Assembly (NCBI GenBank): GCA_021816845.1
Contig: JAKAWT010000001.1
Location: 408,209-472,208, forward strand
Source of the DNA: a bacterium
Lineage (GTDB): Bacteria > Patescibacteriota > Dojkabacteria > JAKAPS01 > JAJZLI01
Reading direction: 5' to 3'
DNA length: 64,000 nt
Part shown: one piece after another, positions 2,697-55,662 of the stretch
Numbering within the stretch: the stretch's first letter is position 1
Layout of the letters: the number at the start of each line of letters is the position of its first letter
The notes under the pieces: model-generated
Database searches by the model: none
What the model saw: the letters and a program-made list of their open reading frames with translations, nothing else
Told to the model about the DNA's origin: nothing
Made by a program: the position numbers and the translations under genes

Positions 2697-5373
2697 AAAA
2701 CTATTTTTAATAGACTCTAATGCACTTATATTTAGAGCTTATCATGCTATCCCTGTATTAAAATCTAAAGATAGAAATGTGAATGCTGTATATGGTTTCT
2801 TCCTTATATTTTTTAAAACACTCCAAAATTATAATCCAGATTATATAATTTGTACTTTTGATTCAGCTACTTCTTCTCAAATTAGAAAAGATAAATATTC
2901 TTGGTATAAAGCGAATAGAGCAGAAACCCCAGATGATCTTGTTGATCAATTTAGTTATGTTAAAGATATACTAAAAACTCTAAATATTAAAATTTATGAA
3001 GAGCCATATTATGAGGCTGATGATATTATTGCATCAATAATAGAAGATTTTAAAAATAAAGATGATATTGATATATATGTGATGACGGGTGATAAGGATT
3101 TATTACAACTCATATCTAAAAAAGTATCTCTGTTGATGCCTTTAAAATCATTTTCTGATCCAGTAGAAATAAATATTAACAATGTTAAAGACTATTTTGG
3201 TATGGAACCTAATATGGTTACCACATATAAAGGCCTTAGAGGAGACCCTTCTGATAACATCCCTGGGGTATCGGGGATAGGAGATAAAGGAGCAAAAGAT
3301 TTAGTAAGTGAATTTGGAAATATCTATTCCATATATAAGGCTATAGATAATATAAAACCAAGTATTGCAAAAAAATTGATAGATAATAAAAAATCTGCAC
3401 TAGAATCATTTGATGCAGCATCACTATATTCAAATATATCTTTAAAAGATTTAGATTTAGACAAGAGTACAGTACTTTTTGACCATAAATCCGTAATTTC
3501 CAAGTTAGAAGAATACCAATTTAAAAGTTTAATAAATAAATATTTCCCTGACTATGTGAACTTACAGAATATAGAGTCTGAAAAAATAGGGCGTCTTAAT
3601 GGGGTGATTATTGAGGATCTAAGTTCATTTAGTGATTTTGTACATAAATTGGAAAAAGTTAAGGAATTTGCCTTTCTATGCACGATATATGATAAAAACA
3701 AATTAAATGCAGGATTACTACCTTTTGGTATATCTATATATGTTGAAGGTGATAATCCTACTTTTATAGATTTTAATAATTCTGATATTATTGAATCAAA
3801 TGAGTTTGAAAATTTTAGGAGTATATTCAAAAATGAAAAGATTAGGAAAATAGGTTATGACATAAAAAAACAAATGCATTTTATGAATAATATTTCTACA
3901 AAGGTAAATGGTATATATTTTGATACGCAAATAGCATATTTCATAATAAAGAATAGAAATACATCTCTGAAAAATATAATATTGGATGTTTTTGACAAGA
4001 ATTTATATGATATAGATATCCTAGAGAATAGTAAGAATACTAAATTGGATAAAAAAACTATAGCTCTAATATATGATGATTATAGTAAATATATATATGA
4101 TTTGTATAAATATATTGATCAACAATTTAAGAAAGATAGTACAATATCAAATGTATTTTTTGAGATAGATATGCCATTAGTTCAAATTCTTTATATGATG
4201 GAGTGTGTAGGAATTAAGGTAAATAAGGGTTTTTTAGATAAATTATATGATAAGTTTGAATTAGAACTTAATGCTCTGGAGAAAGATATATATAAAATTG
4301 CAGGGACTGAGTTTAATATTTCCTCACCAACACAATTAGGAAATGTCCTCTTTAAGACTTTGTCTTTGAAATCCTCAGGTAAGAAGAAGAGTGGAATATT
4401 TAATACTGAAGATTCTGTATTACAATCTATAGAACAAGATAATAACATAGTACCTCTAATTAGAAGGTATAAAGAGGTAAGTAAGATAAAAAATACTTAT
4501 ACTAAAAACCTTGTTAAATTAACTGATTATTCAAGTAGGTTGCATACTAGATACAATATAACTGGTGCATCTACGGGAAGATTATCATCTTCTAACCCTA
4601 ATTTACAGAATATTCCTATCAGGACTGAAACTGGTAGGCAGATAAGAGAAGCTTTTGTTGCAGATAAGGGAAAAGTACTATTTTCATTTGACTATTCTCA
4701 AATAGAATTAAGAATAATGGCATATTATTCTGATGATCCAAGTATGAAATATGCCTTTTTGCACGATGAAGATATACATAAGTATACCGCATCAATTATA
4801 TTTCAAAAAAAGCTTGAAGAAGTTACTAGGGATGAAAGATCTGTTGCTAAAACAATTAATTTTGGAGTTATATATGGTATATCAAGTTTTGGTTTATCTA
4901 GGCAGCTTGGTATTTCACGATTAGAAGCTGATACTTTTATAAAGAATTATTTTGATACCTTTTCTAATATATCTAAATATTATGATTGGATTTCTAATTT
5001 TATTAAAGAACACAACTACGTAGAAACATTATATGGAAGGCGTCGATACTTTGATTATAATAAAGGATATGTTTTTGAAAAAAGAATTTTTAGAGAAGCA
5101 ATAAATATGCCTATTCAAGGTACTAGTGCGGATATTATTAAGATTGCCATGAGAAAAATAAGTAATGATATTATAGATAAGTATGATGCTAATATGATTC
5201 TGCAGATACATGATGAATTAATATTTGAAGTTAGTAAAAAGGTTGATTATAATTCTTTTGTTACTGATATAATTGATGCTATGGTAGAAGGATTCAAGTT
5301 AAATGTAGCTTTAAAAGTAGATGTAAAATATGGAGCTAACTGGAAAAATATGATTCTTTATAAAAAATCATGA
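2671..5373 (+). CDS. polA: DNA polymerase I (5'-3' exonuclease domain plus family A polymerase domain)
   Basis: N-terminal FEN-like domain. Polymerase motif A DYSQIELRIMAYYS, motif B RSVAKTINFGVIYG, motif C QIHDELIFE. Start overlaps the ftsH 3' end; exact start codon uncertain. Confidence 0.9.
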   Translation: MQGVKHQNKKLFLIDSNALIFRAYHAIPVLKSKDRNVNAVYGFFLIFFKTLQNYNPDYIICTFDSATSSQIRKDKYSWYKANRAETPDDLVDQFSYVKDILKTLNIKIYEEPYYEADDIIASIIEDFKNKDDIDIYVMTGDKDLLQLISKKVSLLMPLKSFSDPVEININNVKDYFGMEPNMVTTYKGLRGDPSDNIPGVSGIGDKGAKDLVSEFGNIYSIYKAIDNIKPSIAKKLIDNKKSALESFDAASLYSNISLKDLDLDKSTVLFDHKSVISKLEEYQFKSLINKYFPDYVNLQNIESEKIGRLNGVIIEDLSSFSDFVHKLEKVKEFAFLCTIYDKNKLNAGLLPFGISIYVEGDNPTFIDFNNSDIIESNEFENFRSIFKNEKIRKIGYDIKKQMHFMNNISTKVNGIYFDTQIAYFIIKNRNTSLKNIILDVFDKNLYDIDILENSKNTKLDKKTIALIYDDYSKYIYDLYKYIDQQFKKDSTISNVFFEIDMPLVQILYMMECVGIKVNKGFLDKLYDKFELELNALEKDIYKIAGTEFNISSPTQLGNVLFKTLSLKSSGKKKSGIFNTEDSVLQSIEQDNNIVPLIRRYKEVSKIKNTYTKNLVKLTDYSSRLHTRYNITGASTGRLSSSNPNLQNIPIRTETGRQIREAFVADKGKVLFSFDYSQIELRIMAYYSDDPSMKYAFLHDEDIHKYTASIIFQKKLEEVTRDERSVAKTINFGVIYGISSFGLSRQLGISRLEADTFIKNYFDTFSNISKYYDWISNFIKEHNYVETLYGRRRYFDYNKGYVFEKRIFREAINMPIQGTSADIIKIAMRKISNDIIDKYDANMILQIHDELIFEVSKKVDYNSFVTDIIDAMVEGFKLNVALKVDVKYGANWKNMILYKKS

Positions 5374-7109
5374 AAGATATAAGTTTTGATTCTATTTGTA
5401 GGGATCTTCTCAAAATAGAAAATACAAGGTCAAGGAACGAAAGAACTGAGTTATTGGCCAATCTTCTTAATCTTATTCCTAAAGAATTTATTAAAGAATT
5501 TATCTATATGTTGGATGGGAGGATAAATCCAAGATATGTTAAGTCTGATTTCAACATAGGGAGTAAAAGATTAATTATAGTATTTTCTAAAGTTTTTAAC
5601 ATTCCTCAAGAAGAAGTCTCCAGATCTTTTAGAGAAATTGGAGATATAGGATTATTATTTTTTAATCTTAAGAAAAATAAAAAAACAACACCTACTAGTC
5701 TAAAAGATATAATATTAATGCTAAATAAAATTACTCAAATACATGGTAAAAATGCTAATATATATAAAGAAGATGAACTGGTCATTTTGTATAGTAAAAT
5801 TACTCAATTAGAGGGAAGATTCCTATCTAGAATTTTTGTTGGAAATTTAAGGATGGGATTTAGTGATAAAACTATTTTGGATGCGTTATCTTTTTCTTTA
5901 AAGAATAACAAGTCAAAAAGAGCTGAAATAGAATCTGCATATGCAAAATGTTCAGATCTGGGTATAGTAGCAAGTAAAGTTCTTTTTGATTTTAGTTCAT
6001 TAACTTTATTATCTGTAATTCCTGGTATACCTTTGTTTGCAAAATTAGTAGAAAGATCTAAAAGTGTAGATGATGGTATAAAAAGATTTGGAAGTGTTAT
6101 GGTTCAGCCTAAATTTGATGGATTGAGATGTCAAGTTCATATCACAAGTAACGGAGAAATAAAATTTTATTCAAGAGAACTGTATGATATGACTGACATG
6201 TTCCCAGAAATCACAAAATCTTTTTTAAAAATTAAGAACATAAATAGTGCAATATTTGATTCTGAGGTTGTTGGTATTGATAATATTAATAATAAATATT
6301 TAGCATTTCAAGAGACAATGCAAAGGAAAAGGAAATATGGAATAAATTCTTTTATTACTGATATTCCTTTAAGTATATATATCTTTGATATTATGTATCT
6401 CAATGGGAAATCTCTTCTTGAAATTCCGTTATCTGAGAGATTAGTAATTCTAGAAGATATTTTTAGGAATTCTAGTTACACTAACATAAAAGTAGCAGAA
6501 ACTAAGAATTTTTCAGATCCAATCAAACTATATAATTACTTTAAAAAATGCCTATCTAATGGTTTGGAGGGTGTCGTTATAAAGAATCCGTCAAGTTTAT
6601 ATAAACCTGGAACAAGGAATTTTGATTGGTTAAAATTAAAAAGATCTTCCCTAAAGGGTGTTGTAGATACAATAGATGTTGTAATTATGGGGTATTTCAA
6701 AGGAGGAGGTTCGAGGTCTAAATTTGGTATAGGTGCAGTTTTAGTTGGTATATATAACAAGAATAAAAATAGAGTAGAATCTATATCTAAAGTAGGAAGT
6801 GGTTTTTCAGAAAAGCAACTTATTGCAATAAAAAAACAATTAGATATCATAAAAGAGAGGACTATGCCAGTTAGTTATTATGTCAAAAAGGAGATGTATC
6901 CTGATGTATGGGTTAGTCCAAAAATTGTAGTAGAAATAAGGTCTGATGAAATCACTAAGAGTCCCACACATACTGCTTGTGAAGATAGTAAAAATAGAGG
7001 TTTTGCATTAAGATTCCCTAGAATCATTAATGTTAGGAGTGATAAAAGTTTTTATGATACAACTGATGAAAAAGAGATAAAAAATCTTTATAAAATGCAA
7101 AAAGGATAG
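5370..7109 (+). CDS. ATP-dependent DNA ligase (DNA-binding, adenylation and OB domains)
   Basis: Adenylation motif I KFDGLRCQ (KxDGxR), motif IV EGVVIK, motif V WLKLK. ATGA start overlap with the polA stop. Confidence 0.85.
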   Translation: MKDISFDSICRDLLKIENTRSRNERTELLANLLNLIPKEFIKEFIYMLDGRINPRYVKSDFNIGSKRLIIVFSKVFNIPQEEVSRSFREIGDIGLLFFNLKKNKKTTPTSLKDIILMLNKITQIHGKNANIYKEDELVILYSKITQLEGRFLSRIFVGNLRMGFSDKTILDALSFSLKNNKSKRAEIESAYAKCSDLGIVASKVLFDFSSLTLLSVIPGIPLFAKLVERSKSVDDGIKRFGSVMVQPKFDGLRCQVHITSNGEIKFYSRELYDMTDMFPEITKSFLKIKNINSAIFDSEVVGIDNINNKYLAFQETMQRKRKYGINSFITDIPLSIYIFDIMYLNGKSLLEIPLSERLVILEDIFRNSSYTNIKVAETKNFSDPIKLYNYFKKCLSNGLEGVVIKNPSSLYKPGTRNFDWLKLKRSSLKGVVDTIDVVIMGYFKGGGSRSKFGIGAVLVGIYNKNKNRVESISKVGSGFSEKQLIAIKKQLDIIKERTMPVSYYVKKEMYPDVWVSPKIVVEIRSDEITKSPTHTACEDSKNRGFALRFPRIINVRSDKSFYDTTDEKEIKNLYKMQKG

Positions 7110-10573: not shown

Positions 10574-10647
10574 GGGCGACTAGCTCAGTTGGTTAGAGCG
10601 CAGTTCTGATAAGACTGAAGTCCATGGTTCGAATCCATGGTCGCCCA
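10574..10647 (+). tRNA. tRNA-Ile (GAT) in the 16S-23S spacer
   Basis: Acceptor GGGCGAC/GTCGCCC, anticodon loop CTGATAA, T-arm CATGG-TTCGAAT-CCATG. Confidence 0.9.
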
Positions 10648-10676
10648 GTTTATTATTAGATAATACGAGGGAAAAA

Positions 10677-10749
10677 GGGGACGTAGCTTAGTTGGTAGAG
10701 CGCTTCATTTGCACTGAAGAGGTCAGGAGTCCGAATCTCCTCGTCTCCA
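10677..10749 (+). tRNA. tRNA-Ala (TGC) in the 16S-23S spacer
   Basis: Acceptor GGGGACG/CGTCTCC with a G3:U70 pair, anticodon loop TTTGCAC, T-arm AGGAG-TCCGAAT-CTCCT. Confidence 0.9.
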
Positions 10750-10829
10750 TATATTTATTTACAATGCTCTTTCAAAAGTGAATAGAAAAGTGGGTATTTA
10801 ATCGTGTATTTTGCATACTCAAGTAAAAC

Positions 10830-13924
<3,095 letters not shown>

Positions 13925-14002
13925 GTGTATGTAAAATTCGATTAAAGATCCACTATATTCTATTCACTTTTAAAAGAGCATTGATATCTGATATAATGTG
14001 TT

Positions 14003-15338: not shown

Positions 15339-17828
15339 ATGAATGATCAAGATAACAGTTTCACAAAATTATCAAATAATGCTGTAAAGGCTATAATGTC
15401 AGCATATGATTATGCATTGAATGTTAATTCCAAAGAATTAGATATAAGGTATTTGTTCCTTGCCATAATAAAGAATAAAGATAATATAGTTTCAAAGGCT
15501 ATGGAAAATATCAATTTTAGTTCTTCTATATCTTTTGAAAATATAGATGACGTTCCTTCTTCAAGCAAAAAGTCAAAAAAAGATAATAATATTGTTTTAT
15601 CAAACGATTTTAAAGAAGTTATCACAGGGGCATACTATCTGGCAAAAAAATTTAATCATGTTTATGTTGGGACAGAGCATCTATTCTTATCCATAATGAG
15701 GCAAGAAGATAATTCTTTTGTTAAAGAATTGAAGAAATATGGGATAGACTATGAATCTGCATATAACATTATCTTTAGTTATGGTAATTACCCACCAGGC
15801 GTCTTTCTTCAGAAGGATAACGAAAATAATTCTTTGATACCTGTAGAGAGTCAAAGGGCTATTATCAATACAATAGCTACAAATTTAAATAAAACTGTTA
15901 AGGAGAAAGGAGGTGTAGAAATAGTAGGGAGAAGTGAAGAGATTGATAGGATAATTCACATTTTGTCAAGGAAGAGTAAGAATAACCCTATTTTGATTGG
16001 TGAGGCGGGAGTAGGTAAAACATTTTTAGTAGAAGCTCTAGCTTCAAGAATTGTTAATAATAAAGTTCCGGAGAATCTTAGGAATTTTGAGATATGGAGC
16101 TTAGATATATCAAAATTAATGATGTCCACAGAGATGAGGGGAGAGTTGGAAGGTAAGATTAACATGGTTATGGAAGAAGTAAAATCAAGAAAAAACATAA
16201 TAATTTTTATTGATGAGATACATATGATCTTTAATTCTAGTGGGAATGCCTCTAATAATGATATAGCTAATATATTAAAACCTCATTTAACAAGTGAATA
16301 TCTAAGATGTATTGGCGCAACAACACTGTATGAATACCAAAGATATTTTGAAGGTGATGCTGCTCTAAACAGAAGATTTCTTCCTGTAAAGGTTAAAGAG
16401 TTATCTATTGATGATTCCGTCAAAGTTCTATCTGGTGTAAAACAAGATATAGAAAGTTTTCACAGTATTAAAATAAATGAAGAAGCTATACCAACATCAG
16501 TATATCTTGCTGATAGATTTATAGTAGATAGATTCTTACCTGATAAGGCTATAGATTTACTTGAAGAGGCTGCTACTGCTAAAAACTTGGAAGATAATAG
16601 ATACTCTAAGAAGATTTCTAATTTAAGGGATAGCATTAAAAATATTCAAGAAAAAAAAGAAAAATATCTAGAAGAACAAAAATATCTTCAATCCATGTAT
16701 TTGAGAGAAAAAGAAAGAGTATTAAATCAGGAGATGATTAATATAAAGAGTAATGATCTTTTTTATGGTAGAGAAGTTATGCCTGAAGATATAGTAAAGG
16801 TTGTTTCTAAATGGACAGATATACCAGTCTATAATATATCAAATAGCAATCTTGCACAAATGAAATCTATTGATAAAGAGATAAGGAAGGAAATTATAGG
16901 ACAAGACAATGCAGTTACTAGGGTAGTAGATATATTGAAAAGTGCTAGAGCAGGGTTTAGAGACGAGAGAAGACCTTTAGGCATATTTCTATTTTTAGGT
17001 CCTACAGGTGTTGGTAAAACAGAATTGGCGAAGCAGGTAGCTAATAAATATATGGGAAGCTCTAAGTCATTAATACAGTTAGATATGTCCGAGTATATGG
17101 AGGCACATAGTGTATCAAAGTTTATTGGTTCTCCTCCTGGATATGTTGGTTATCAAGAAGGGGGAAGACTTACTGAATCTGTGAAAAACAAACCTTATTC
17201 AGTTGTACTTTTTGATGAAATTGAAAAGGCCCATCCAGATGTTTTAAATATATTACTTCAAGTTATGGAAGAAGGTCATTTAACTGACAGTAGAGGTCGT
17301 TTTGTAAATTTTAAAAATACTATTATAATACTGACATCTAATATTGGATCTGATTTGATTGAAAATAGTAATATTCTTGGATTTGATATAGATATAGAGG
17401 ATGAAGAGGAATCAAGTGTTGTTAGTGAATATGAAAAAATGGAATCACAGGCATTAATGAAATTAAAGGAATATTTGTTGCCTGAGTTCCTTAACAGAAT
17501 AGATGATGTGATAATATTTAGATCTTTAAGCAAAAATGATGCCTTAAAGATAGTCAAAAAATTAGCTTATGAATCTAAAAATAAATTATCAAAGCTGAAT
17601 ATTAATATAGAGTACTCGGAGAATTTCTTAAGATATATTACAGACAGAGGCTTTAGTGAAGAATTCGGTGTAAGACAATTGAAAAGGATATTCAATAAGA
17701 ATACAGAAACAACATTGGCTAGCTATTTTATTGATAATCATTTTAATAATGATAGTCAAATCCAAAACAAATCAATCATAATGGATTATGATTTAAATAA
17801 TAAGGTTGTTTTGATAAATAGCAAATAA
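15339..17828 (+). CDS. clpC: Clp ATPase of the ClpC/ClpB family (two AAA+ domains, Clp_N repeats, short middle domain)
   Basis: Two Clp_N repeats. D1 Walker [10 protein letters not shown]2 Walker [13 protein letters not shown]. Linker of about 60 aa between D1 and D2, resembling ClpC more than ClpB. Confidence 0.9.
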
Positions 17829-20635: not shown

Positions 20636-21679
20636 TTAGTTCGGATTCTTTATATTTTTTGATAATATATCTATATATTTGATTGATTCTGCAGCCCCTT
20701 TTGCGGCAGTAAGCATTGGTTCGTCTGATATATATGTCGGTATGCCTATTGCCCTAGTTAAAAGTGTATCAATATTCCTTAATAAAGCTGTTCCTCCACT
20801 TAGCAATATTCCTCTATCAATTATATCTGAGGATAACTCTGGAGGAGTTTTTTCTAAAACATATCTTGTTGATTGAATTATTAGATTGAGAGGATTCTTT
20901 ATAGCTTCAACAATCCTGTTAGTATCTATATTTATAGATCTTGGCATTCCAGTGATTGCATCTCTACCTTTTACTTCTGTTTCTAAAGGAGCCTTAAGTG
21001 GTAGGGCAGAACCTATATCTATTTTTATTTTTTCTGCCATTTGATCACCTATAACTAGACCTTCGTGTCTTTTTAGATGATTGATAATAGCATCGTTAAT
21101 TGAATCACCACCGACTCTTATAGAATCAGAAATAACAATACCATTCAAGGAAATTACTGCTAGTTCAGCAGTACCACCTCCTATATTGATAACCATATTT
21201 CCAGAAGATGTTCCTATTGGTAAATTTGCTCCTATTGCAGTTAATAATGCTTCTGGTACCAAATAAACTTTTTTTATTCCAGAATTTATTATTGCTTCAT
21301 AAATAGCTCTTTTTTCTACTGATGTTAATCCAGAGGATATATTTGCGACTACTTGTGATCCAAAAAAAATATTTGATTTTCCAACTTTAGAAAAGAAATA
21401 TTTTATCATAGATTCAGATATTTTATAATTTGCTATAGCCCCGGAACGTATAGGTTTTTTGGAAATGATTCCTTCGGGTGTTTTTCCTAGCATTTCTTTT
21501 GCCTCTACACCTACGGATAATATTGATTTATCATCTACTGATATTGCTACTACTGAAGGTTCATTAAGTAGGACGCCCTTATTGATAGATGATATTAAAG
21601 AGTTTGAAGTACCGAAATCTAATCCAAATTTATTATTACTAAACATAATTTTGCATGAATAAATAAAAAAATGTATCAA
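20636..21679 (-). CDS. Divergent MreB/actin-like paralog
   Basis: Phosphate-1 motif LDFGTSNS, NEPSVVAI, phosphate-2/adenosine motif INIGGGTAELAVISLNGIV. Clearly MreB-like but more divergent than the canonical mreB at 31185. Confidence 0.8.
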   Translation of the reverse strand: MIHFFIYSCKIMFSNNKFGLDFGTSNSLISSINKGVLLNEPSVVAISVDDKSILSVGVEAKEMLGKTPEGIISKKPIRSGAIANYKISESMIKYFFSKVGKSNIFFGSQVVANISSGLTSVEKRAIYEAIINSGIKKVYLVPEALLTAIGANLPIGTSSGNMVINIGGGTAELAVISLNGIVISDSIRVGGDSINDAIINHLKRHEGLVIGDQMAEKIKIDIGSALPLKAPLETEVKGRDAITGMPRSINIDTNRIVEAIKNPLNLIIQSTRYVLEKTPPELSSDIIDRGILLSGGTALLRNIDTLLTRAIGIPTYISDEPMLTAAKGAAESIKYIDILSKNIKNPN

Positions 21680-23223: not shown

Positions 23224-23228
23224 AAACA

Positions 23229-23302
23229 CATCCCTGATAGGATTCGAACCTACGACCTTCTCGTTAGGACCGAGACACTCTATCCAGCTGAGCTACAGGG
23301 AT
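23229..23302 (-). tRNA. tRNA-Arg (CCT)
   Basis: Reverse complement gives acceptor ATCCCTG/CAGGGAT, D-arm GCTC-AGCTGGAT-AGAGT, anticodon stem TCTCG/CGAGA with loop GTCCTAA, T-arm CGTAG-GTTCGAAT-CCTAT. Confidence 0.8.
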
Positions 23303-23414
23303 ATAATTTAGCTATATTATACATAAAAATTACTTATTTTTAAAATGTTTTATTGATAATCAAATTATATTTTGATAAAATTAGCCTGTTATTTTATTTA
23401 CAATTATCTATATT

Positions 23415-27433: not shown

Positions 27434-27504
27434 CAGGTTCAGTGGGGATCGAACCCACATCAATGGTTTTGGAGACCAATATTTTACCATTAAACTATGA
27501 ACCT
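27434..27504 (-). tRNA. tRNA-Trp (CCA)
   Basis: Reverse complement: acceptor AGGTTCA/TGAACCT, anticodon loop CTCCAAA, T-arm GTGGG-TTCGATC-CCCAC. Sits in the classical position upstream of secE. Confidence 0.85.
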
Positions 27505-27512
27505 CTATAAAT

Positions 27513-27677
27513 TTATTTTACTTCTTTATGTAAAGTATGCTTTTTACAAGTATTACAAAATTTATTTAATTCTAACCTTTCCTTATTATTAGTATAATTC
27601 TTCTTAGAAGTATAGTTTTTATTTTTACATATGGTACATTGTAGAAAAATATACCTTCTGTTATCTTTTTTAGCCAT
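27513..27677 (-). CDS. rpmG: 50S ribosomal protein L33 (54 aa; absent from the ORF track)
   Basis: Translated by hand: [54 protein letters not shown]. Two CxxC pairs in the spacing characteristic of L33. Confidence 0.8.
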
Positions 27678-27723
27678 ATTATTTTATAAAATATTATTTG
27701 TTTAAATTATGTTGTTATTTCTC

Positions 27724-27795
27724 AGCCTAGAAGCGGACTTGAACCGCTGGTCTTTCCCTTACCATGGGAATGCTCTACCACTGAGCTATCTAGGC
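27724..27795 (-). tRNA. tRNA-Thr (GGT)
   Basis: Reverse complement: acceptor GCCTAGA/TCTAGGC, anticodon stem TTCCC/GGGAA with loop ATGGTAA, T-arm AGCGG-TTCAAGT-CCGCT. Confidence 0.85.
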
Positions 27796-27798
27796 ATA

Positions 27799-27882
27799 TG
27801 CAGAGAGAAGGATTCGAACCTTCGTAGCCGTAACGGCAACTGATTTACAGTCAGCCGCGATTGTCCACTCCGCCATCTCTGC
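27799..27882 (-). tRNA. tRNA-Tyr (GTA), long variable arm
   Basis: Reverse complement: acceptor GCAGAGA/TCTCTGC, anticodon loop containing GTA (GACTGTAAATC), long extra arm GTTGCCGTTACGGCTAC, T-arm GAAGG-TTCGAAT-CCTTC. Confidence 0.85.
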
Positions 27883-27893
27883 ATAATGCTATC

Positions 27894-27965
27894 AGCCTTC
27901 TGTCAGGGTCGAACTGACGACCTGCTGTTTACAAAACAGCTGCTCTACCACTGAGCTAAGAAGGC
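27894..27965 (-). tRNA. tRNA-Thr (TGT)
   Basis: Reverse complement: acceptor GCCTTCT/AGAAGGC, anticodon stem GCTGT/ACAGC with loop TTTGTAA, T-arm GTCAG-TTCGACC-CTGAC. Confidence 0.8.
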
Positions 27966-28202
27966 TTTATATTTGCCATACTAAATATATTTAGTAATGC
28001 TTGCATTCTATATAAAAAGATATTCTTTTTCAACCTTGACCCATCTAGCTTTAAAACTTGATTTCAAAAAAAACAAGTATTGTAACGCAAGTATAAATCA
28101 TAAGAGTTATACTGATATAGTTATTATTTTATATTATGTTAAATCAGTTTTTACCTTATGCTAGATGGGCTAATACTTATTATAGCAAATAAACTAGTGG
28201 AT

Positions 28203-31184: not shown

Positions 31185-32243
31185 ATGGCATTTTCTGATC
31201 CATTTTGGAATATGTTTACTTATGATATAGGTATCGATCTTGGTACTGCAAACACACTAGTTTGTGTTAGGAATCAGGGTGTTACAATATCTGAACCATC
31301 AGTTGTAGCTTTCAATTCAAAAACTAAAACAGTGCTAGCGGTAGGATCTGAAGCTCAAAAAATGTTGGGTAGAACACCTGCATCTATTGTAGCTATAAGA
31401 CCTTTGAAGGATGGGGTGATATCAGATTTTGATGCCACCAGAGAGATGATAAAATATTTTATAGAGAAAGTTCATAAAGATTCTCCTAAATTTTTTAAGA
31501 TACCTAGGCCAAGGGTTGTTATAGGTATACCTTCAGCTATAACTGAAGTAGAAAAAAAGGCTGTTATTGATGCTGCTATATCTGCTGGAGCTAGGAAGGT
31601 ATATTTAATAGAAGAGCCCATGGCAGCTGCAGTTGGTATAAATGTTCCTGTAACAGAACCATTGGGATCATTAATTGTAGATATAGGGGGAGGTACTTCA
31701 GATATTGCTGTAATATCATTGGGAGGTATAGTTGTTGATAAATCAATTAGGGTGGCGGGAGATGAGATGACAGTAGATATAGTTAATTATATTAGATCAA
31801 AGTACAACTTATTAATAGGAGAGAGGACAGCTGAAGAAATTAAAATAAAGTTGGGTAATGCTTATCCCAGGAAGGATAATAAAAGTATGGAGATAAAGGG
31901 TCGAGATATATTGTTAGGTCTCCCTAAAGTTATAAAAATATCTGAAGTTGAAATAAGGGAAGCAATGTCTAATTCGCTTAATATTATTATTGAAGCTATT
32001 TCTGAAGCTTTAGAGGAGACACCTCCTGAACTTATTTCAGATATTACAAATAATGGGATATATCTTACTGGAGGAGGTGCCCAGATTTCTGGAATTAATA
32101 AATTATTTCTAGAAAAGTTAAAAATACCAATAATGATAGCTGATGATCCTTTATCTAGTGTAGTATTAGGAGCTTCAAAAATTTTAGAAGACTTAAGTCT
32201 TCTTGAGAATATCTCTTATTCAGATTCTGAAGAATTCTTATAA
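31185..32243 (+). CDS. mreB: Rod shape-determining protein MreB (canonical)
   Basis: IGIDLGTANTLV, NEPSVVAF, IVDIGGGTSDIAVISLGGIV; followed by mreC and mreD. Confidence 0.9.
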   Translation: MAFSDPFWNMFTYDIGIDLGTANTLVCVRNQGVTISEPSVVAFNSKTKTVLAVGSEAQKMLGRTPASIVAIRPLKDGVISDFDATREMIKYFIEKVHKDSPKFFKIPRPRVVIGIPSAITEVEKKAVIDAAISAGARKVYLIEEPMAAAVGINVPVTEPLGSLIVDIGGGTSDIAVISLGGIVVDKSIRVAGDEMTVDIVNYIRSKYNLLIGERTAEEIKIKLGNAYPRKDNKSMEIKGRDILLGLPKVIKISEVEIREAMSNSLNIIIEAISEALEETPPELISDITNNGIYLTGGGAQISGINKLFLEKLKIPIMIADDPLSSVVLGASKILEDLSLLENISYSDSEEFL

Positions 32244-32252
32244 ATCTAAATT

Positions 32253-33062
32253 ATGGTTAGTTTTAAAAAAAGTACAAAAACGTCCAACATATTAAAAAAA
32301 ATATCTATACTTTTTGCAATAGCAATAGTTCTTATTATAATAAGTATCAAAGTTCCAGCACTTTCTAATCTTACAAGTGGGATATTTATACCTATTAAAT
32401 CGGATATATTTTCTTTTTCATCCAATATTGGAGGGTTTTTCTATAATATAAATAACATAAATAATATTGAATATAGTAATACTATTTTAGAGAGGAAAAT
32501 ATATAATTATAAATCTGAATTAGCTAATCTAAATATTTATAAATCTGAGAATAAGATTTTAAAGGATCAATTAAATAAAAAATATTTTAATACAAATTAT
32601 AGATATACATTATCGAGGATACTTTATTATGGACCTATAAATACATTAGGTTATATATATGTTGGGAGTGGAAGTAATCAAGGTGTGAAAGTAGGTGATG
32701 CTGTTGTATATAAAAATTTTCTTCTGGGTAAAGTAATCTATACATATAGTAACTATTCTAAGGTTATTTTGATATCAAATGTAAATTTATCTATTCCTGT
32801 AATTGTAAATAAAGTTAATGCTATCCTAACGGGAAGCCTATCTAGCTCTTTGATTCTTCAAGATGTAACACAGCTTGATAATGTTAAAATTGGAGATAGT
32901 GTTGTAACTTCTGGAATAGATGGAACTTTCCCTCAGAATCTAATAACTGGGTATGTCAGTTATGTTTCAAACAATAAAAGTAGTACATTTAAGGCTATAA
33001 GTGTTGATAATGCAATAAATATTTATGATCTCCAGTATGTCTTTATAATGGACAATCAGTAA
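32253..33062 (+). CDS. mreC: Rod shape-determining protein MreC
   Basis: N-terminal TM, coiled-coil region, and the conserved C-terminal beta-domain block GDSVVTSGIDGTFPQNLITGYV. Confidence 0.75.
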   Translation: MVSFKKSTKTSNILKKISILFAIAIVLIIISIKVPALSNLTSGIFIPIKSDIFSFSSNIGGFFYNINNINNIEYSNTILERKIYNYKSELANLNIYKSENKILKDQLNKKYFNTNYRYTLSRILYYGPINTLGYIYVGSGSNQGVKVGDAVVYKNFLLGKVIYTYSNYSKVILISNVNLSIPVIVNKVNAILTGSLSSSLILQDVTQLDNVKIGDSVVTSGIDGTFPQNLITGYVSYVSNNKSSTFKAISVDNAINIYDLQYVFIMDNQ

Positions 33063-33570: not shown

Positions 33571-35430
33571 ATGGATGATTTTGAATTAGATGATTTTAAT
33601 AACCTACCTACTGATGAAGATAAAGATAAAGTAAATAAATCTTTATTGTTAAAATTCATGGGTTCTTTTATATTTGTAATTATCTTGATTTTTATTCTTG
33701 GTGTTTTTTATATATCAATTATTGAGCATAATAAATTTCAGAATTTAGCCTTTCAAAATAGAATTATAAAAAGTCCTATAGTTGCAAATAGGGGGGTAAT
33801 ATTAAGTAGGAATATGACACAACTTTCTTTCAATGTTCCTACATATCAACTTTATCTTGATATAAATAATTTAAGTAATACGCAAATAAAAAATGATATC
33901 AATAAAATAGCACCTATATTGAATATGTCTGTTAAAAAGATAACAAATATTGTTCATAATGGTAAAAAAAATAATGAAATTGAAATACCTATATATAATG
34001 GTTTATCTAGTAAAAATGAAATATTAATTAGTTCAAATACTGCATTAAATGCATTCATAATAAAGGAAGTTCCTGTAGTTAAATTTAAATATAATAATTT
34101 GTTGTCACATATAATAGGGTATACAGGACCCGTTACTGAACAAGAGCTTTTATCTAATCCAAATTTAACTCCATACGATATAGTAGGAAGATATGGGATA
34201 GAACAATCATTCAATAAATATCTCATGGGGCAAGATGGAATTCAGTTAAAAGAGGTTAATACTTATGGGCAAATTGTTTCAAGTTATGGAGAAAAAAAAC
34301 CAGTAGCTGGAGACAATGTTCAATTAAATATTAGCAGTACCATTCAAAAAGAAATGCAATCTTTACTTATCCAAAGTATCAAAACTGATCCTAATCATGT
34401 TACAGGTGCTGTTGGTGTTGTAGAAAATGTAAATACTGGCGGAATTTTGGCAATGGTTAGTTATCCTACTTTTAACAATAATGCTTTTGAAGGTGCAGGG
34501 ATTAGTAATGCTGCATACAATGTTCTTCTTAATAATCCTATGGATCCGCTTTTAAACAGAGCAATTTCTGAGCAGCAACCAGTAGGCTCTATAATGAAGA
34601 CAATACTTCTTTCGGCTGCATTACAAGATAATGTTCTAACTCCTAATACTACATTTACTGTTCCTGGAACCTTTTTATATGATGGAACATTGTTTGAAAA
34701 TTATGCAAAAATAAACTGGGGAACTGCCAATATAGCTAAATGCTTGCAATTTTCAATCAATGTTTTCGCTTTTAAAGCTTCAATAAAACTAGGGATTCAG
34801 AGGTTTGTAAAATTCGAACAATTATTTGGTCTTGGTAAAACTACTGGTATACAATTACCAGGAGAATTATCTGGTATAATTTCTGATCCTAAAACTAAAT
34901 TAGCTATTACGGGGCAAGCATGGTATCCAGGTGATTTACTCAATGCCGCAATAGGTCAAGGTTATACAGAGGTTACACCAATACAAGTTGTAAACTGGAT
35001 AAGTGCTATTGCTAATGGTGGTACACTATACAAGCCAAGAATTGTTAAAGCTATATATAATCAACAAGGGAAAGTTGTTAAAAATTATGCTCCACAGGTA
35101 GTAAGGAGAGGCTTTGTATCTACCAACAATTTGAATGTGATAAAATATGGTATGGAACAAGCTGTACAGAACGGTATAGATATAGCTGCAAAGAGTGTGA
35201 TAGCTGATAATGCGGGTAAGAGTGGTACAGCTCAGTTTGGGAATGAAATTATTAGTAATACTTCTGATAGATATAGTCATTCTCACTCATGGATGGCATC
35301 TTTTGCTCCATATAAGAATCCTCAGATAGCTGTTGTTGTTTTTGAAGAAAACGGAGGTCTGAGTACTTATGCTGCAGAAGTTGTAAAAAATTTCATGAAT
35401 TGGTATTTTGGTGTATATTTAAAAAAATAA
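33571..35430 (+). CDS. mrdA: Penicillin-binding protein 2 (class B transpeptidase)
   Basis: N-terminal TM and dimerisation domain. Transpeptidase motifs SxxK (GSIMK), SxN, and KSGT (GKSGTAQ). Confidence 0.85.
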   Translation: MDDFELDDFNNLPTDEDKDKVNKSLLLKFMGSFIFVIILIFILGVFYISIIEHNKFQNLAFQNRIIKSPIVANRGVILSRNMTQLSFNVPTYQLYLDINNLSNTQIKNDINKIAPILNMSVKKITNIVHNGKKNNEIEIPIYNGLSSKNEILISSNTALNAFIIKEVPVVKFKYNNLLSHIIGYTGPVTEQELLSNPNLTPYDIVGRYGIEQSFNKYLMGQDGIQLKEVNTYGQIVSSYGEKKPVAGDNVQLNISSTIQKEMQSLLIQSIKTDPNHVTGAVGVVENVNTGGILAMVSYPTFNNNAFEGAGISNAAYNVLLNNPMDPLLNRAISEQQPVGSIMKTILLSAALQDNVLTPNTTFTVPGTFLYDGTLFENYAKINWGTANIAKCLQFSINVFAFKASIKLGIQRFVKFEQLFGLGKTTGIQLPGELSGIISDPKTKLAITGQAWYPGDLLNAAIGQGYTEVTPIQVVNWISAIANGGTLYKPRIVKAIYNQQGKVVKNYAPQVVRRGFVSTNNLNVIKYGMEQAVQNGIDIAAKSVIADNAGKSGTAQFGNEIISNTSDRYSHSHSWMASFAPYKNPQIAVVVFEENGGLSTYAAEVVKNFMNWYFGVYLKK

Positions 35431-51413: not shown

Positions 51414-52757
51414 ATGATAGATATTCATAGAAATATTTCTAAAGATGCATTAAAAATTTCGGATATACTCTCTAAAAATGGGTATCAAGCTTATCTTGTC
51501 GGTGGATCTATAAGAGATATATTAATGAATAAAAATGACTTACACGATTATGATATAGCCACAGATGCAACTCCTGATGATTTAAAAAGAATTTTTAAGG
51601 ATGCTATAGCTTTTGGAGAAAAATTTGGCACAATACTTGTAATTTATAAAGGTTTTAACTTTGAAATTACTACTTTTAGGACTGAATCTGATTATAAAGA
51701 TCAAAGACACCCAGAAAAAGTTGTATTCATAAAAGATATTAAAGAAGATTTGAAGAGAAGAGATTTTACTATGAATGCAATTGCTTTTAATATGCAATCA
51801 AATGATCTTATTGACATTTTTGGTGGGCAAAAAGATATAAAGAATAAAATTATTAGATGTGTAGGGGATCCTGATTTAAGATTTAATGAAGATCCTTTAC
51901 GTCTTATTAGGGCTGTAAGGTTTTATGTACAACTTCATTTTGATATTGAGGAAGATACCTATAAATCAATTAAAAATAATGCTTCTAAAATAGTGACTGT
52001 ATCTAAGGAAAGGATTCGTGATGAGTTTATGAGAATGCTTTCATTTGATAAACCAAGTAGAGGTATAGAACTACTTCGTGATACTGGATTACTAGATTAT
52101 ATATTTCCTGAGATTAACCTTTGTTATGGGGTTGAACAGAATAAATTTCATTCATTAGATGTATATCATCATATATTACTATCAATGGATATGGCTGACA
52201 AAAGAATTAGATTAGCTGCTTTACTCCATGATATAGGCAAACCTCAAACTAAAAATGGTGAGCATTTTTTTGGTCACGAAAAAATTGGTGCAGAAATGGC
52301 TGATAAGATGTTGAGAAGATTAAAATTTCCTAAAAAAGATATATCTCTTATATCCAAACTTATATATTTACATCTTTTTAATTATGAGGATAAATGGACA
52401 GATTCTGCAATAAGGAGATTTTTAAGAAGGGTTGAAAATGATGAAACCTTGGAACTCTTATTTTTACTCAGAGAAGCTGATGAACATGGTAATCCAATAT
52501 CTCAATATGACTTTACAAATTTAGATAAACTAAAAAAAAGAATATCTAAAGTTAGAGATAAGGATGGATATTTATCATTGAAGGATTTAAAATTAAATGG
52601 TGATGATTTGATAAAAATAGGTTATAGCAAGGGCATAGATATAGGTAAGGAACTACAGACTATACTTATGAAAGTTATTGAGAATCCAAATATAAATAAT
52701 AGAGAGAAGCTTCTAAAAATGGCTAAAGATGATTTTATTAAATTAAAAACAATATGA
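51414..52757 (+). CDS. cca: CCA-adding tRNA nucleotidyltransferase with C-terminal HD domain
   Basis: PolyA polymerase head domain (GGSIRDILMNK...DYDIAT) and HD motif (HDIGKP). Confidence 0.85.
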   Translation: MIDIHRNISKDALKISDILSKNGYQAYLVGGSIRDILMNKNDLHDYDIATDATPDDLKRIFKDAIAFGEKFGTILVIYKGFNFEITTFRTESDYKDQRHPEKVVFIKDIKEDLKRRDFTMNAIAFNMQSNDLIDIFGGQKDIKNKIIRCVGDPDLRFNEDPLRLIRAVRFYVQLHFDIEEDTYKSIKNNASKIVTVSKERIRDEFMRMLSFDKPSRGIELLRDTGLLDYIFPEINLCYGVEQNKFHSLDVYHHILLSMDMADKRIRLAALLHDIGKPQTKNGEHFFGHEKIGAEMADKMLRRLKFPKKDISLISKLIYLHLFNYEDKWTDSAIRRFLRRVENDETLELLFLLREADEHGNPISQYDFTNLDKLKKRISKVRDKDGYLSLKDLKLNGDDLIKIGYSKGIDIGKELQTILMKVIENPNINNREKLLKMAKDDFIKLKTI

Positions 52758-54043
52758 TTAATGTTCAGCCATTTTATGATCCTGAAGATAATATATCTTG
52801 TATATATATAAAATCTCAGAAATACAATATTCTTATAAATTGCGGTGTCATATATCCCAATATGCCATTTAAAAAGTTTCCATTTGATCCAAAGCTAATA
52901 GATTTCCTCTTTCTATCTAGCGCTGATATACAGGATACAGGCTTAATTCCCAGATTTGTAAAAGATGGATTTGATGGAGAAATATATTCCACCAAAGAGA
53001 CATTAGAATTATATGATAATATAATTAAGAATGCTGCCTTAATAGAGAAAGAAAATATTTCAGAAAATAAGCACTATACGTTGTATGATAATGTGTCAAT
53101 AAATAAATCACTCTCTATGTTTAATTTTTTAGATAAAAAATCAGGAGTAATTTATGATGATTTAGTTCTACAAATATTTTTTTCTGGACATATGCCAGGT
53201 TCTATTTCTATTAAATTAATGATTGAAGGTAAAAATTTGATTATATTGGGTAATCTATATTCTAATAATAAAAATATATATAAGAAAGACAGTATAAAAA
53301 TTAATAAAGGAGACACTGTTATTATTCAATGTTATAGTATGAATGATAAGTATGACCGTGAGGATGATATAATAAAATTTGATACTATATTGGGTAAAAC
53401 AATATCATCTGGAGGAAATATACTATTTCCTGTTTTTTCCCCTATAGCTATTTTTAATATACTTTCTCAGTTGGATAAATTCTTTAAGTCTAAAGATATA
53501 AGTAATATTCCAGTCTTTATAGATGGTTTATTTTTTGATAAATTTATCAAATTTCTAAATACTCATAAATATAAATATGATTTATCTGTAGATAATATTA
53601 ATTATATAGATAACATATCAAAATCCTTTAGGTTAGTACAGAAATCTTTATCAAAAATAGATAAAAGAAGAACCCTTCAGTCACAAATAATAATATCTTC
53701 AGGGGAACGTATGATCAATTATTTAAAAAAGAATATTGTATTTAAAAAAAATGCTATAATCTTAACAGAAAAAGCACTTAAAGATACTTTAGAATATAAA
53801 ACAAAAAACCATACTAACATATTATATAAAAATAAAATTTATAAAATAAGAGCTGGTATTGCTGAATGTTTAAGTTTTTCTGGATATACTTCCTATGATG
53901 ATATAATATCCTTACTGGGAGATAAAAGTACAGATATAAATATTATTGAGGTTGGTGGATCAAATTATTTATTAGAGCGTCTTGGTTACCCAAATATTTT
54001 GATAAAAAAAATATTGTCTAGTGAAACATATATTTTAAATTAA
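52754..54043 (+). CDS. MBL-fold/beta-CASP-like protein with degenerate metal-binding motif (predicted non-catalytic)
   Basis: The N-terminal beta-strand/loop pattern resembles the metallo-beta-lactamase fold. The position expected for HxHxDH reads LSSADIQDTG. A later SGHMPGS block resembles MBL motif 3. Assignment is by pattern only. Confidence 0.35.
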   Translation: MINVQPFYDPEDNISCIYIKSQKYNILINCGVIYPNMPFKKFPFDPKLIDFLFLSSADIQDTGLIPRFVKDGFDGEIYSTKETLELYDNIIKNAALIEKENISENKHYTLYDNVSINKSLSMFNFLDKKSGVIYDDLVLQIFFSGHMPGSISIKLMIEGKNLIILGNLYSNNKNIYKKDSIKINKGDTVIIQCYSMNDKYDREDDIIKFDTILGKTISSGGNILFPVFSPIAIFNILSQLDKFFKSKDISNIPVFIDGLFFDKFIKFLNTHKYKYDLSVDNINYIDNISKSFRLVQKSLSKIDKRRTLQSQIIISSGERMINYLKKNIVFKKNAIILTEKALKDTLEYKTKNHTNILYKNKIYKIRAGIAECLSFSGYTSYDDIISLLGDKSTDINIIEVGGSNYLLERLGYPNILIKKILSSETYILN

Positions 54044-55182: not shown

Positions 55183-55591
55183 TATATGGTGGAGATGGTG
55201 GGGATCGAACCCACATCCAATGAAGTTATTATATATATGGAATTACAAGTTTACCAATTTAAAATTTTAAAGATAATTATTCAAAAATTAGCAAACAATA
55301 ATTACCCTGATACTGTTCTTAATGTCATACTAAATCGTAGGTATCATAATTTAATATCTAGCTTATCTTTGTTTAAACAAAATAATAAACTCAAGCAGGT
55401 TTACTATTTCATCCTAAATGTACTGTTTAGGCAACATTTAGATAGAAAGCAGGTTTTGCAAATATAGAGTTAACTACTGTGCTAACCTTACTTTTTATAT
55501 TGTTTACATTTGTGTTTTTAGAAATTTTTTAAAAGATTTCTAAATCTTTACTTGCCATTTATATAACAGAATTCCTTGTCAAGACCGATCA
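55183..55591 (-). ncRNA. ssrA: tmRNA (transfer-messenger RNA, SsrA), about 409 nt with encoded CCA
   Basis: Read by hand on the minus strand. 5' end GGGGATG pairs with the 3' acceptor strand CATCTCC and includes a G3:U70 pair, the alanine identity element. T-arm GTGGG-TTCGATC-CCCAC followed by ACCA. Internal reading frame GCA AAA CCT GCT TTC TAT CTA AAT GTT GCC TAA gives the tag AKPAFYLNVA. The stop codon sits in the loop of a hairpin CTAAATGT...ACATTTAG, as in helix 5 of tmRNAs. Confidence 0.8.
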
Positions 55592-55662
55592 TCCCCATAT
55601 TTATTTATAATTAAAGAACACAACTTTTAATTTTACCATATTTATGTTAATCTTTCAATAAT

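Follow-up and report, generated by a model that had tools for sequence, protein, structure and literature searches.

Does the minus strand of this stretch of DNA encode a transfer-messenger RNA (tmRNA), the product of ssrA, and, if it does, at which codon would translation resume and how long would the appended peptide tag be? The stretch analyzed here, referred to as the window, comprises 64,000 nucleotides (nt) of contig JAKAWT010000001.1 and derives from a metagenome-assembled genome (MAG) of the Patescibacteria (candidate phyla radiation, CPR), with a GC content of ~28%. Our reading, to which we assign a probability of roughly 0.83 on the basis of sequence comparison, is that the locus is a functional, standard one-piece ssrA gene whose message resumes at GUA nt 90 of the RNA, not at GCA nt 138, and encodes a long tag. 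The kind of gene is already known, a tmRNA is expected in every bacterium, and standard tools detect the copy in the window.

ARAGORN called a one-piece tmRNA on the minus strand, the sole tmRNA in the window, and the Rfam model RF00023 matched the same interval along its entire length (model positions 1–374 of 374) with a score of 78.3 bits (gathering score 47; E 1.1e-28). A preliminary description of the locus, made from the sequence letters, had placed an ssrA gene on this strand at 55183–55591 and had named the Rfam tmRNA models, ARAGORN and a search for smpB as suitable checks. The covariance-model match above the gathering score and the ARAGORN call both bear out the gene, the strand and the locus, with the boundaries displaced by 4–5 nt, as the gene spans 55187–55596. 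The separation of about 400 nt reported between the two tRNA-like halves is likewise close, since 392 nt separate the acceptor strands.

Is the gene found at the same place in related genomes? The order of genes around it is cysS, cca, a beta-CASP gene in some genomes, ychF, ssrA on the opposite strand, a pilN-like gene, two small open reading frames (ORFs) and rpoB, and this order is kept in relatives whose YchF proteins are 91%, 87% and 57–62% identical to that of the window. In all those relatives, both ARAGORN and Rfam found a tmRNA in the gap between ychF and pilN, and the RF00023 scores of the eight distinct syntenic relatives ranged from 48.2 to 87.7 bits, all above the gathering threshold. 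A protein search with the ssrA-adjacent YchF returned a 100% identical protein on contigs of up to 484 kb, and Patescibacteria MAGs as its closest named relatives. On the other hand, a scan of genome contigs with YchF, which is too conserved for this purpose, gave no close relatives; its best matches were ~47% identical and came mostly from Gammaproteobacteria.

The predicted RNA has the parts expected of a tmRNA. The GGGGATG/CATCTCC acceptor with G3:U70, the T-arm and the encoded CCA, all pointed out in the preliminary description, could be read directly in the sequence, and the tRNA-like domain thus consists of a 7-bp acceptor stem, a T-arm, a discriminator base and CCA, with no anticodon arm. 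Among the nine distinct tmRNAs compared (that of the window and those of the eight relatives), acceptor pair 3, in which G3 lies opposite U404, is a G:U pair in every sequence. The 3′ CCA is encoded only in the close clade (the window and loci L085–L087; loci are given here by L-numbers) and is absent from the tmRNA genes of L088–L095. In the window itself, CCA is encoded by the tmRNA gene but by none of its nine tRNA genes (653–831, 10574–10749, 23228–23303 and 27434–27966), and cca lies two genes upstream of ssrA in all relatives.

The interior of the RNA was evaluated by covariation. The nine tmRNAs were aligned and folded with RNAalifold, which recovered the acceptor stem, the P2 helix, stem 2 of pseudoknot 1 (PK1), the stop-codon hairpin, helices at the positions of PK2 and PK4, and the T-arm; PK1 stem 1 was added to this structure before the 61 pairs were counted. 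The results show that 95.8% of the cells were paired in the proposed structure, compared with 40–50% when the 3′ partners were slid by 1–3 columns, and that 17 pairs carried compensatory changes, compared with 2–5 in the slid controls and with fewer than 17 in each of 500 shuffles. Four of these pairs lie in P2 (helices 2 and 3, 92.6–100% paired) and three in PK1 stem 2, giving seven for helices 2–5 together. The preliminary description had also put the stop codon in a hairpin loop; we found the arms CUAAAUGU and ACAUUUAG at nt 156–163 and 176–183, with UAA inside the 12-nt loop, and the relatives support this hairpin (helix 6 of the covariation count) with compensatory changes in two of its seven pairs and 96.8% pairing. 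Further 3′, one covarying helix was found at each of the PK2 and PK4 positions, whereas the PK3 region and the second stems align poorly. Chance resemblance to a tmRNA can be ruled out because the Rfam E value is 1.1e-28 and because these helices covary in nine related sequences.

Could the two tRNA-like ends instead be the halves of an intron-containing or split tRNA, parted by unrelated sequence, the first of which the preliminary description itself had considered? The acceptor stem, the T-arm and the CCA are the only features in favor of such a gene. However, the match to RF00023 is full-length, ARAGORN classified the locus as a tmRNA and found no tRNA there, neither an anticodon arm nor a D-arm was found, and the sequence in between holds PK1, P2, a tag frame and a stop-codon hairpin, with P2, PK1 and the hairpin covarying. 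A gene for the partner protein SmpB is also present (see below). A tRNA of either kind is refuted by the full-length RF00023 match and the covariation, and we give it practically no chance.

A second question concerns the opposite strand, where an ORF encoding 93 amino acids overlaps the gene. Were this ORF a real protein gene, the likeness of the minus strand to an RNA would be secondary. It begins with ATG and has been annotated as a protein gene, in place of ssrA, in the Logan, ENA and NCBI (GCA_027425395.1) assemblies, in which the public gene calls around it leave no tmRNA-sized gap. However, a Pfam scan of the ORF matched no family; the ORF is not called in L085, in which YchF is 91% identical, or in more distant relatives, though the tmRNA is kept there; and the substitutions in the region are in line with base pairing in the RNA and with the tag frame read on the minus strand. 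These observations agree with the preliminary description, in which the ORF was regarded as spurious, and led us to reject a genuine antisense gene as highly improbable.

Where, then, does translation resume? ARAGORN and the preliminary description both start the tag at GCA nt 138, and the short frame described there is present, reading AKPAFYLNVA followed by a stop. The same frame is, however, open from nt 69, well 5′ of this codon. In the Rfam alignment, the consensus resume motif UGCaAAC is placed onto UGUAAAC at nt 88–94, which makes GUA nt 90–92 the resume codon. This codon sits 10–11 nt past PK1, which ends at about nt 79. In Escherichia coli, the frame is set by A86, which lies at −4, and PK1 is followed 12 nt on by the resume codon (PMC2481249); the A86/G90 numbering of the E. 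coli RNA happens to match that of the window tmRNA exactly.

We therefore compared the frame among the relatives, an approach with a precedent in Carsonella, in which the tag was identified as the most conserved frame among related sequences (PMC4131195). The column of the proposed resume codon holds GUA in the window clade, L088, L090 and L092 and GCA in L093–L095. For the more distant relatives, ARAGORN's own call begins at the nt-90 column, with predicted tags of 28–30 residues (VNNIKSKVSEFVGNLKSTFTPQYNLSLA, VNNIKSKVSAFVDNLKTAFVSPSYNLNLA, ANKIKSTVSEFFAKLKANVFTPNYNLNLA and ANKVKNFVSNAVAQIRTTLFSQPALNLNIA). Taken together, the eight syntenic relatives encode tags of 26–30 residues with a conserved N-terminus, VNNIKSKVS or ANKIKS..., and a C-terminus that reads ...AFYLNVA in the window and ...YNL(N/S)LA in relatives. 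The window shares its first nine tag residues, VNNIKSKVS, with both L088 and L090, whereas the whole tmRNAs are only 64–67% identical; in each of the two comparisons, four of the nine codons differ, and every difference is synonymous, including a switch of a serine codon from AGC to TCA. Within the close clade, the region 5′ of GCA shows synonymous changes (AAT/AAC, ATA/ATC and TTT/TTC) and conservative replacements (T/A and S/A), with no stops or frameshifts, and the tag lengths of the relatives differ by whole codons (multiples of 3 nt). Over the nine sequences, no stop occurs in the 253 codons of the tag frame, whereas the two alternative frames contain 34 and 31, and a single shuffled segment stays open with a chance of only 5–11%.

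These results place the resume codon at GUA nt 90, so that the tag would very likely be the 26-residue (A)VNNIKSKVSTVVNSIFAKPAFYLNVA, of which AKPAFYLNVA forms the last 10 residues. Consequently, the tag given in the preliminary description is probably truncated, as the comparative evidence moves the resume codon 48 nt upstream. Its remark that the tag ends in ...LNVA instead of ...ALAA holds for either resume codon.

Several observations weigh against resumption at GUA. A valine resume codon is unusual, and a 2005 survey lists only Ala, Gly, Asp, Arg, Ser and Glu as resume codons (PMC1168896). GCA-138, on the other hand, is a canonical codon for alanine; U-A occupies positions −5 and −4, the same arrangement as in E. 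coli; and ARAGORN favors this codon in each of the four tmRNAs of the close clade. Spacing alone is not decisive because E. coli does not depend critically on how far U85 lies from PK1 (PMC2481249). The close clade itself offers few substitutions 5′ of GCA (three synonymous and two conservative), and the relatives used are non-independent samples. The conservation of nt 90–137 could also partly reflect constraint on the RNA rather than on the peptide; an RNA-only constraint is nevertheless disfavored by the serine switch from AGC to TCA, which crosses between codon families.

Could the tmRNA of the window, then, resume at GCA-138 and encode the short tag (A)AKPAFYLNVA, with the open frame upstream being a remnant of an ancestral long tag? 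ARAGORN chose this codon in the window, L081, L085, L086 and L087, GCA is the commonest resume codon, and U133-A134 stands before it in the way U85-A86 stands before the resume codon in E. coli. The middle of the tag has moreover been remodeled, the window clade having lost 2–4 codons relative to its relatives. However, neither GCA-138 nor its context is conserved beyond the close clade; the column holds a gap, GTC, GCT, TTT or AGT in the relatives. The upstream resume context AAAUGUAAA is, by comparison, wholly kept, A86 included; the frame 5′ of GCA has changed in the close clade only by the synonymous and conservative substitutions noted above; and VNNIKSKVS has been kept through synonymous changes relative to L088 and L090. 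ARAGORN also makes the same downstream call in other Patescibacteria tmRNAs (L118, L164 and L175), despite an in-frame AN... start at nt 88–91. We thus consider resumption at GCA-138 unlikely.

If the long frame is the one translated, might its first codon be an in-frame neighbor of GUA-90, such as AAU at nt 96? The sequence upstream of AAU, UAAAC, also has an A at −4, the A-rich region offers several such positions, and some Parcubacteria tmRNAs (L101 and L149) read ...UGUAAAU followed by GCN, with the GCN two codons past a GUA. However, resume codons overwhelmingly begin with G, L093–L095 carry a canonical GCA in the exact column of GUA and thereby give typical AN... starts, and Rfam places the consensus resume codon on that column. 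On these three grounds AAU-96 was rejected as improbable, and GUA-90 is retained as the proposed resume codon. The features of the locus are collected in Table 1.

Table 1. Features of the ssrA locus, in window coordinates, with nucleotide numbers of the tmRNA where they apply.
Feature	Coordinates	Strand	Basis or remark
tmRNA (ssrA), one-piece, 410 nt, 3′ CCA encoded	55187..55596	−	ARAGORN, Rfam RF00023, syntenic homologues
Acceptor stem, 5′ strand GGGGAUG (nt 1–7), with G3 of G3:U70	55590..55596	−	Sequence; 7/7 pairs invariant in nine sequences
Acceptor stem, 3′ strand CAUCUCC (nt 400–406), discriminator A and encoded CCA (nt 407–410)	55187..55197	−	Sequence
T-arm GUGGG-UUCGAUC-CCCAC (nt 383–399)	55198..55214	−	Rfam alignment; 5/5 stem pairs invariant
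Helix P2, 5′ strand (nt 29–47), partner nt 347–370	55550..55568	−	Covariation
Helix P2, 3′ strand (nt 347–370)	55227..55250	−	Covariation
Pseudoknot PK1 (nt 48–79), stem 1 AAAG/CUUU, stem 2 UAGAAA/UUUCUA	55518..55549	−	Helices 4 and 5
A86, at −4 of the proposed resume codon	55511..55511	−	Invariant 9/9 within AAAUG[U/C]AAA
Proposed resume codon GUA (Val), nt 90–92	55505..55507	−	Rfam alignment and relatives
Proposed tag frame, 26 codons and UAA stop, nt 90–170	55427..55507	−	Open, conserved frame
GCA nt 138–140, most likely an internal codon (Ala-17)	55457..55459	−	ARAGORN resume codon; column not conserved
Helix 5 hairpin (nt 155–184), UAA stop (nt 168–170) in loop	55413..55442	−	Covariation
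Helix at PK2 position (nt 185–191 with nt 214–220)	55377..55412	−	Helix 7; 4 pairs with compensatory changes
Helix at PK4 position (nt 303–312 with nt 337–346)	55251..55294	−	Helix 8; 4 pairs with compensatory changes
Promoter-like site TTGAAA-17-TAAAAT with extended −10 TG	55630..55658	−	Best site of the scan; 34 nt separate it from the mature 5′ end
Spurious ORF (93 aa) opposite the tmRNA	55186..55467	+	ORF list; no Pfam family

Is the partner protein of the tmRNA encoded in this genome? No smpB was found inside the 64-kb window. It was found ~3.9 kb beyond the window's left end (window-equivalent −4365 to −3910; L216 4787–5242) on contig k141_490397, which belongs to a near-identical strain and is strictly not the window's own assembly; the two differ by 15 mismatches in 12,696 nt of overlap (99.9% identity), and this contig also carries the ssrA locus (L082). 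The preliminary description's suggestion to look for smpB elsewhere in the genome is thus answered just outside the window. The encoded SmpB of 151 amino acids exceeded the cutoffs of two NCBIfam equivalogs, NF003843 (150.4 bits; cutoff 130) and TIGR00086 (139.4 bits; cutoff 119.1), and its C-terminal tail is intact and basic, with a DKR motif. Between smpB and a block of DivIC, two tRNA-Met genes and ftsH lie genes for a TraD/VirD4-like coupling ATPase and a tyrosine integrase (L216 5513–7945 and 8339–9202), which could represent an integrated mobile element.

Two candidates for a role in degrading tagged proteins are encoded in the window. FtsH (849–2696) scored 721.6 bits against a cutoff of 600. 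A second protein of the Hsp100 type (15339–17828, plus strand, 829 amino acids) falls below the equivalog cutoffs of both ClpB and ClpA; it carries ILGFD, with the tripeptide LGF, near residue 680, in the position of ClpP-docking loops, and is probably ClpC-like. Because this unfoldase has an LGF loop, its sequence suggests that a ClpP exists elsewhere in the genome; no clpX, clpP or lon was found among the ~74 kb of the genome that was read. The window also encodes peptidyl-tRNA hydrolase, ribosome recycling factor and the CCA-adding enzyme.

What would the RNA be transcribed from? The promoter-like site in Table 1 has 10 of 12 matches plus the TG, and the region holds no more sites of this kind than chance alone would give. 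The motif TGnTAnAAT followed by AAAAGTTG recurs 5′ of ssrA (window 55597–55662; L088, L092, L093, L094 and L095) at a variable distance from the 5′ end, and the tmRNAs of the relatives that share it are only 64–68% identical to that of the window. This conservation of the motif suggests that the site may act as a promoter, and its distance from the mature 5′ end would imply a 5′ leader that must be removed. A scan for an intrinsic terminator 3′ of ssrA found none.

By analogy with the known pathway, the RNA would be transcribed from the extended −10 promoter with a short 5′ leader, processed to GGGG...ACCA, charged with alanine through its G3:U70 acceptor stem, and brought into stalled ribosomes together with SmpB. 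Translation would then resume at GUA nt 90, four nucleotides after A86, and end at the UAA in the loop of helix 5. The long tag, with its conserved N-terminal half and hydrophobic ...LNVA end, would mark the rescued protein for an AAA+ protease, for which FtsH and the ClpC-like unfoldase are the candidates in the window.

The surroundings of the gene hold further observations. The beta-CASP gene between cca and ychF (52754–54043, plus strand) looks degenerate in the window clade, where its sole domain match is a weak one to Beta-Casp; in L094 and L095 it has complete metallo-beta-lactamase, beta-CASP and RMMBL domains, and it is absent in L088, L090, L092 and L093. Elsewhere, the window carries many housekeeping genes and an rRNA operon with tRNA-Ile and tRNA-Ala in its spacer. 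Its 23S rRNA (10821–13927, plus strand) is 3107 nt long, compared with 2925 positions in the model, and contains large insertions, for example at about 11115–11212 and 11492–11534. An ATP-dependent DNA ligase of the archaeal/eukaryotic type (5370–7109, plus strand; DNA_ligase_A_N, _M and _C) directly follows DNA polymerase I. With two MreB paralogues, MreC and a PBP2-type transpeptidase (20636–21679, minus strand; 31185–32243, 32253–33062 and 33571–35430, plus strand), this very small genome has a complete rod-shape module.

How does this tmRNA compare with those already characterized? It resembles E. coli SsrA and RF00023 in the tRNA-like domain with G3:U70, T-arm and ACCA, in the long P2, in A86 at −4, in PK1 followed ~10–12 nt on by the resume codon, in the stop codon within helix 5, in the PK2- and PK4-position helices, in the SmpB partner, and in a tag ending in alanine. 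Unlike E. coli SsrA, it is 410 nt long (363 nt in E. coli) with 28% GC, it would resume at GUA (Val) instead of GCA, its proposed tag has 26 residues instead of 10 and ends in LNVA instead of LAA, and its PK3 region aligns poorly. A likeness in tag length is offered by the Mollicutes. Mesoplasma florum, with its mf-ssrA, shares with the organism studied here a small, AT-rich, reduced genome and a tag far longer than that of E. coli, and the proposed tag, with 26 residues in the window and 28–30 in relatives, likewise far exceeds ~10. In Mollicutes, the long tag accompanies a switch of protease and is directed to Lon (PMC9382460), and a resume codon other than alanine has also been reported, namely Glu in Mycoplasma pulmonis (PMC1168896). 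On the other hand, the M. florum tag ends in the Lon-recognized ...NYAFA (PMC9382460), to which ...YLNVA is unrelated, and, unlike the Mollicutes in this comparison, the window carries a ClpC-like unfoldase with an LGF loop. The case also recalls Carsonella ruddii (Hudson et al. 2014, PMC4131195), in which a single AT-rich sequence was insufficient and the tag frame was found by comparison. In Carsonella, however, SmpB is degenerate and some strains have tags that end in Lys, whereas the SmpB tail is intact here and the tag ends in Ala.

Do long tags extend beyond the syntenic relatives? A metagenome scan anchored on both tmRNA ends gave 80 loci. About half of them are tmRNAs of the Bacteroidota type with tags such as GENNYALAA, and ~18–25 others encode tags of 22–30 residues with the pattern AN..(S/A)K(A/V)K..VSPYFG...FAFAYA.A. 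In L118, L164 and L175, ARAGORN begins at a downstream GCN, while an in-frame AN... or AK... start with a UAA(A/G)U context is found at nt 88–91; the tags called there appear to be truncated in the same way as that of the window. On a 583-kb contig (L166, 3159–6074), ftsH (minus strand) is followed by smpB and ssrA (both plus strand) in a tight cluster, an arrangement that hints at a connection of FtsH with the tag without being evidence of it. The closest homologues of the L166 SmpB among the matches listed come from Pacebacteria, Yonathbacteria, Nomurabacteria, Minisyncoccia and Parcubacteria, and, as judged from these, the long-tag group belongs to the Patescibacteria; the SmpB of the window genome was not among the matches listed for this query.

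The Parcubacteria/Paceibacteria tmRNAs of this group (L096, L126, L166, L170, L171, L175 and others) have the same tRNA-like ends as that of the window, by design of the search pattern, and are likewise 397–422 nt long, with tags of 22–30 residues ending in Ala. The N-terminal halves of the tags align, sharing A-(N/K)-x-x-x-(S/A)-K-(V/A)-(K/S)-x-x-V, whereas the C-terminal halves differ (...VSPYFG...FAFAYA.A, compared with ...IFAKPAFYLNVA in the window). Also unlike the window, these loci use GCN as the resume codon, have a higher GC content (0.36–0.5), lack the ychF synteny and, in L166, show the order ftsH-smpB-ssrA. In agreement with this, tblastn searches of the 80 metagenome loci with YchF, the PilN-like protein, the CCA enzyme and orf208 gave no hits. 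Literature searches for tmRNA tags in CPR bacteria, for their protease content and for the tag peptides gave no relevant result.

A tentative and rather doubtful extension of these comparisons is that the Patescibacteria as a group use a long two-part tag whose conserved N-terminal part, (A/V)N..(S/A)K(V/A)(K/S)..V, would serve as a second recognition element, for an adaptor or for a non-ClpX protease such as FtsH, and that in the lineage of the window the resume codon drifted from GCA to GUA with its function kept. If this is true, the arrangement would be analogous to the Mollicutes switch to Lon and independent of it, and standard tools would systematically truncate such tags.

The points of modest interest are thus the corrected tag, the GUA resume codon, a long-tag family of Patescibacteria that ARAGORN appears to truncate, and a spurious annotation, with public assemblies carrying a 93-aa protein in place of ssrA. 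If the tags are indeed truncated, tag catalogues, and any inference about degrons and proteases built on them, would be wrong for this group of Patescibacteria. A conserved tag of 26–30 residues with a valine resume codon, in a minimal genome, would give a concrete entry point for testing how rescued proteins are disposed of in CPR bacteria.

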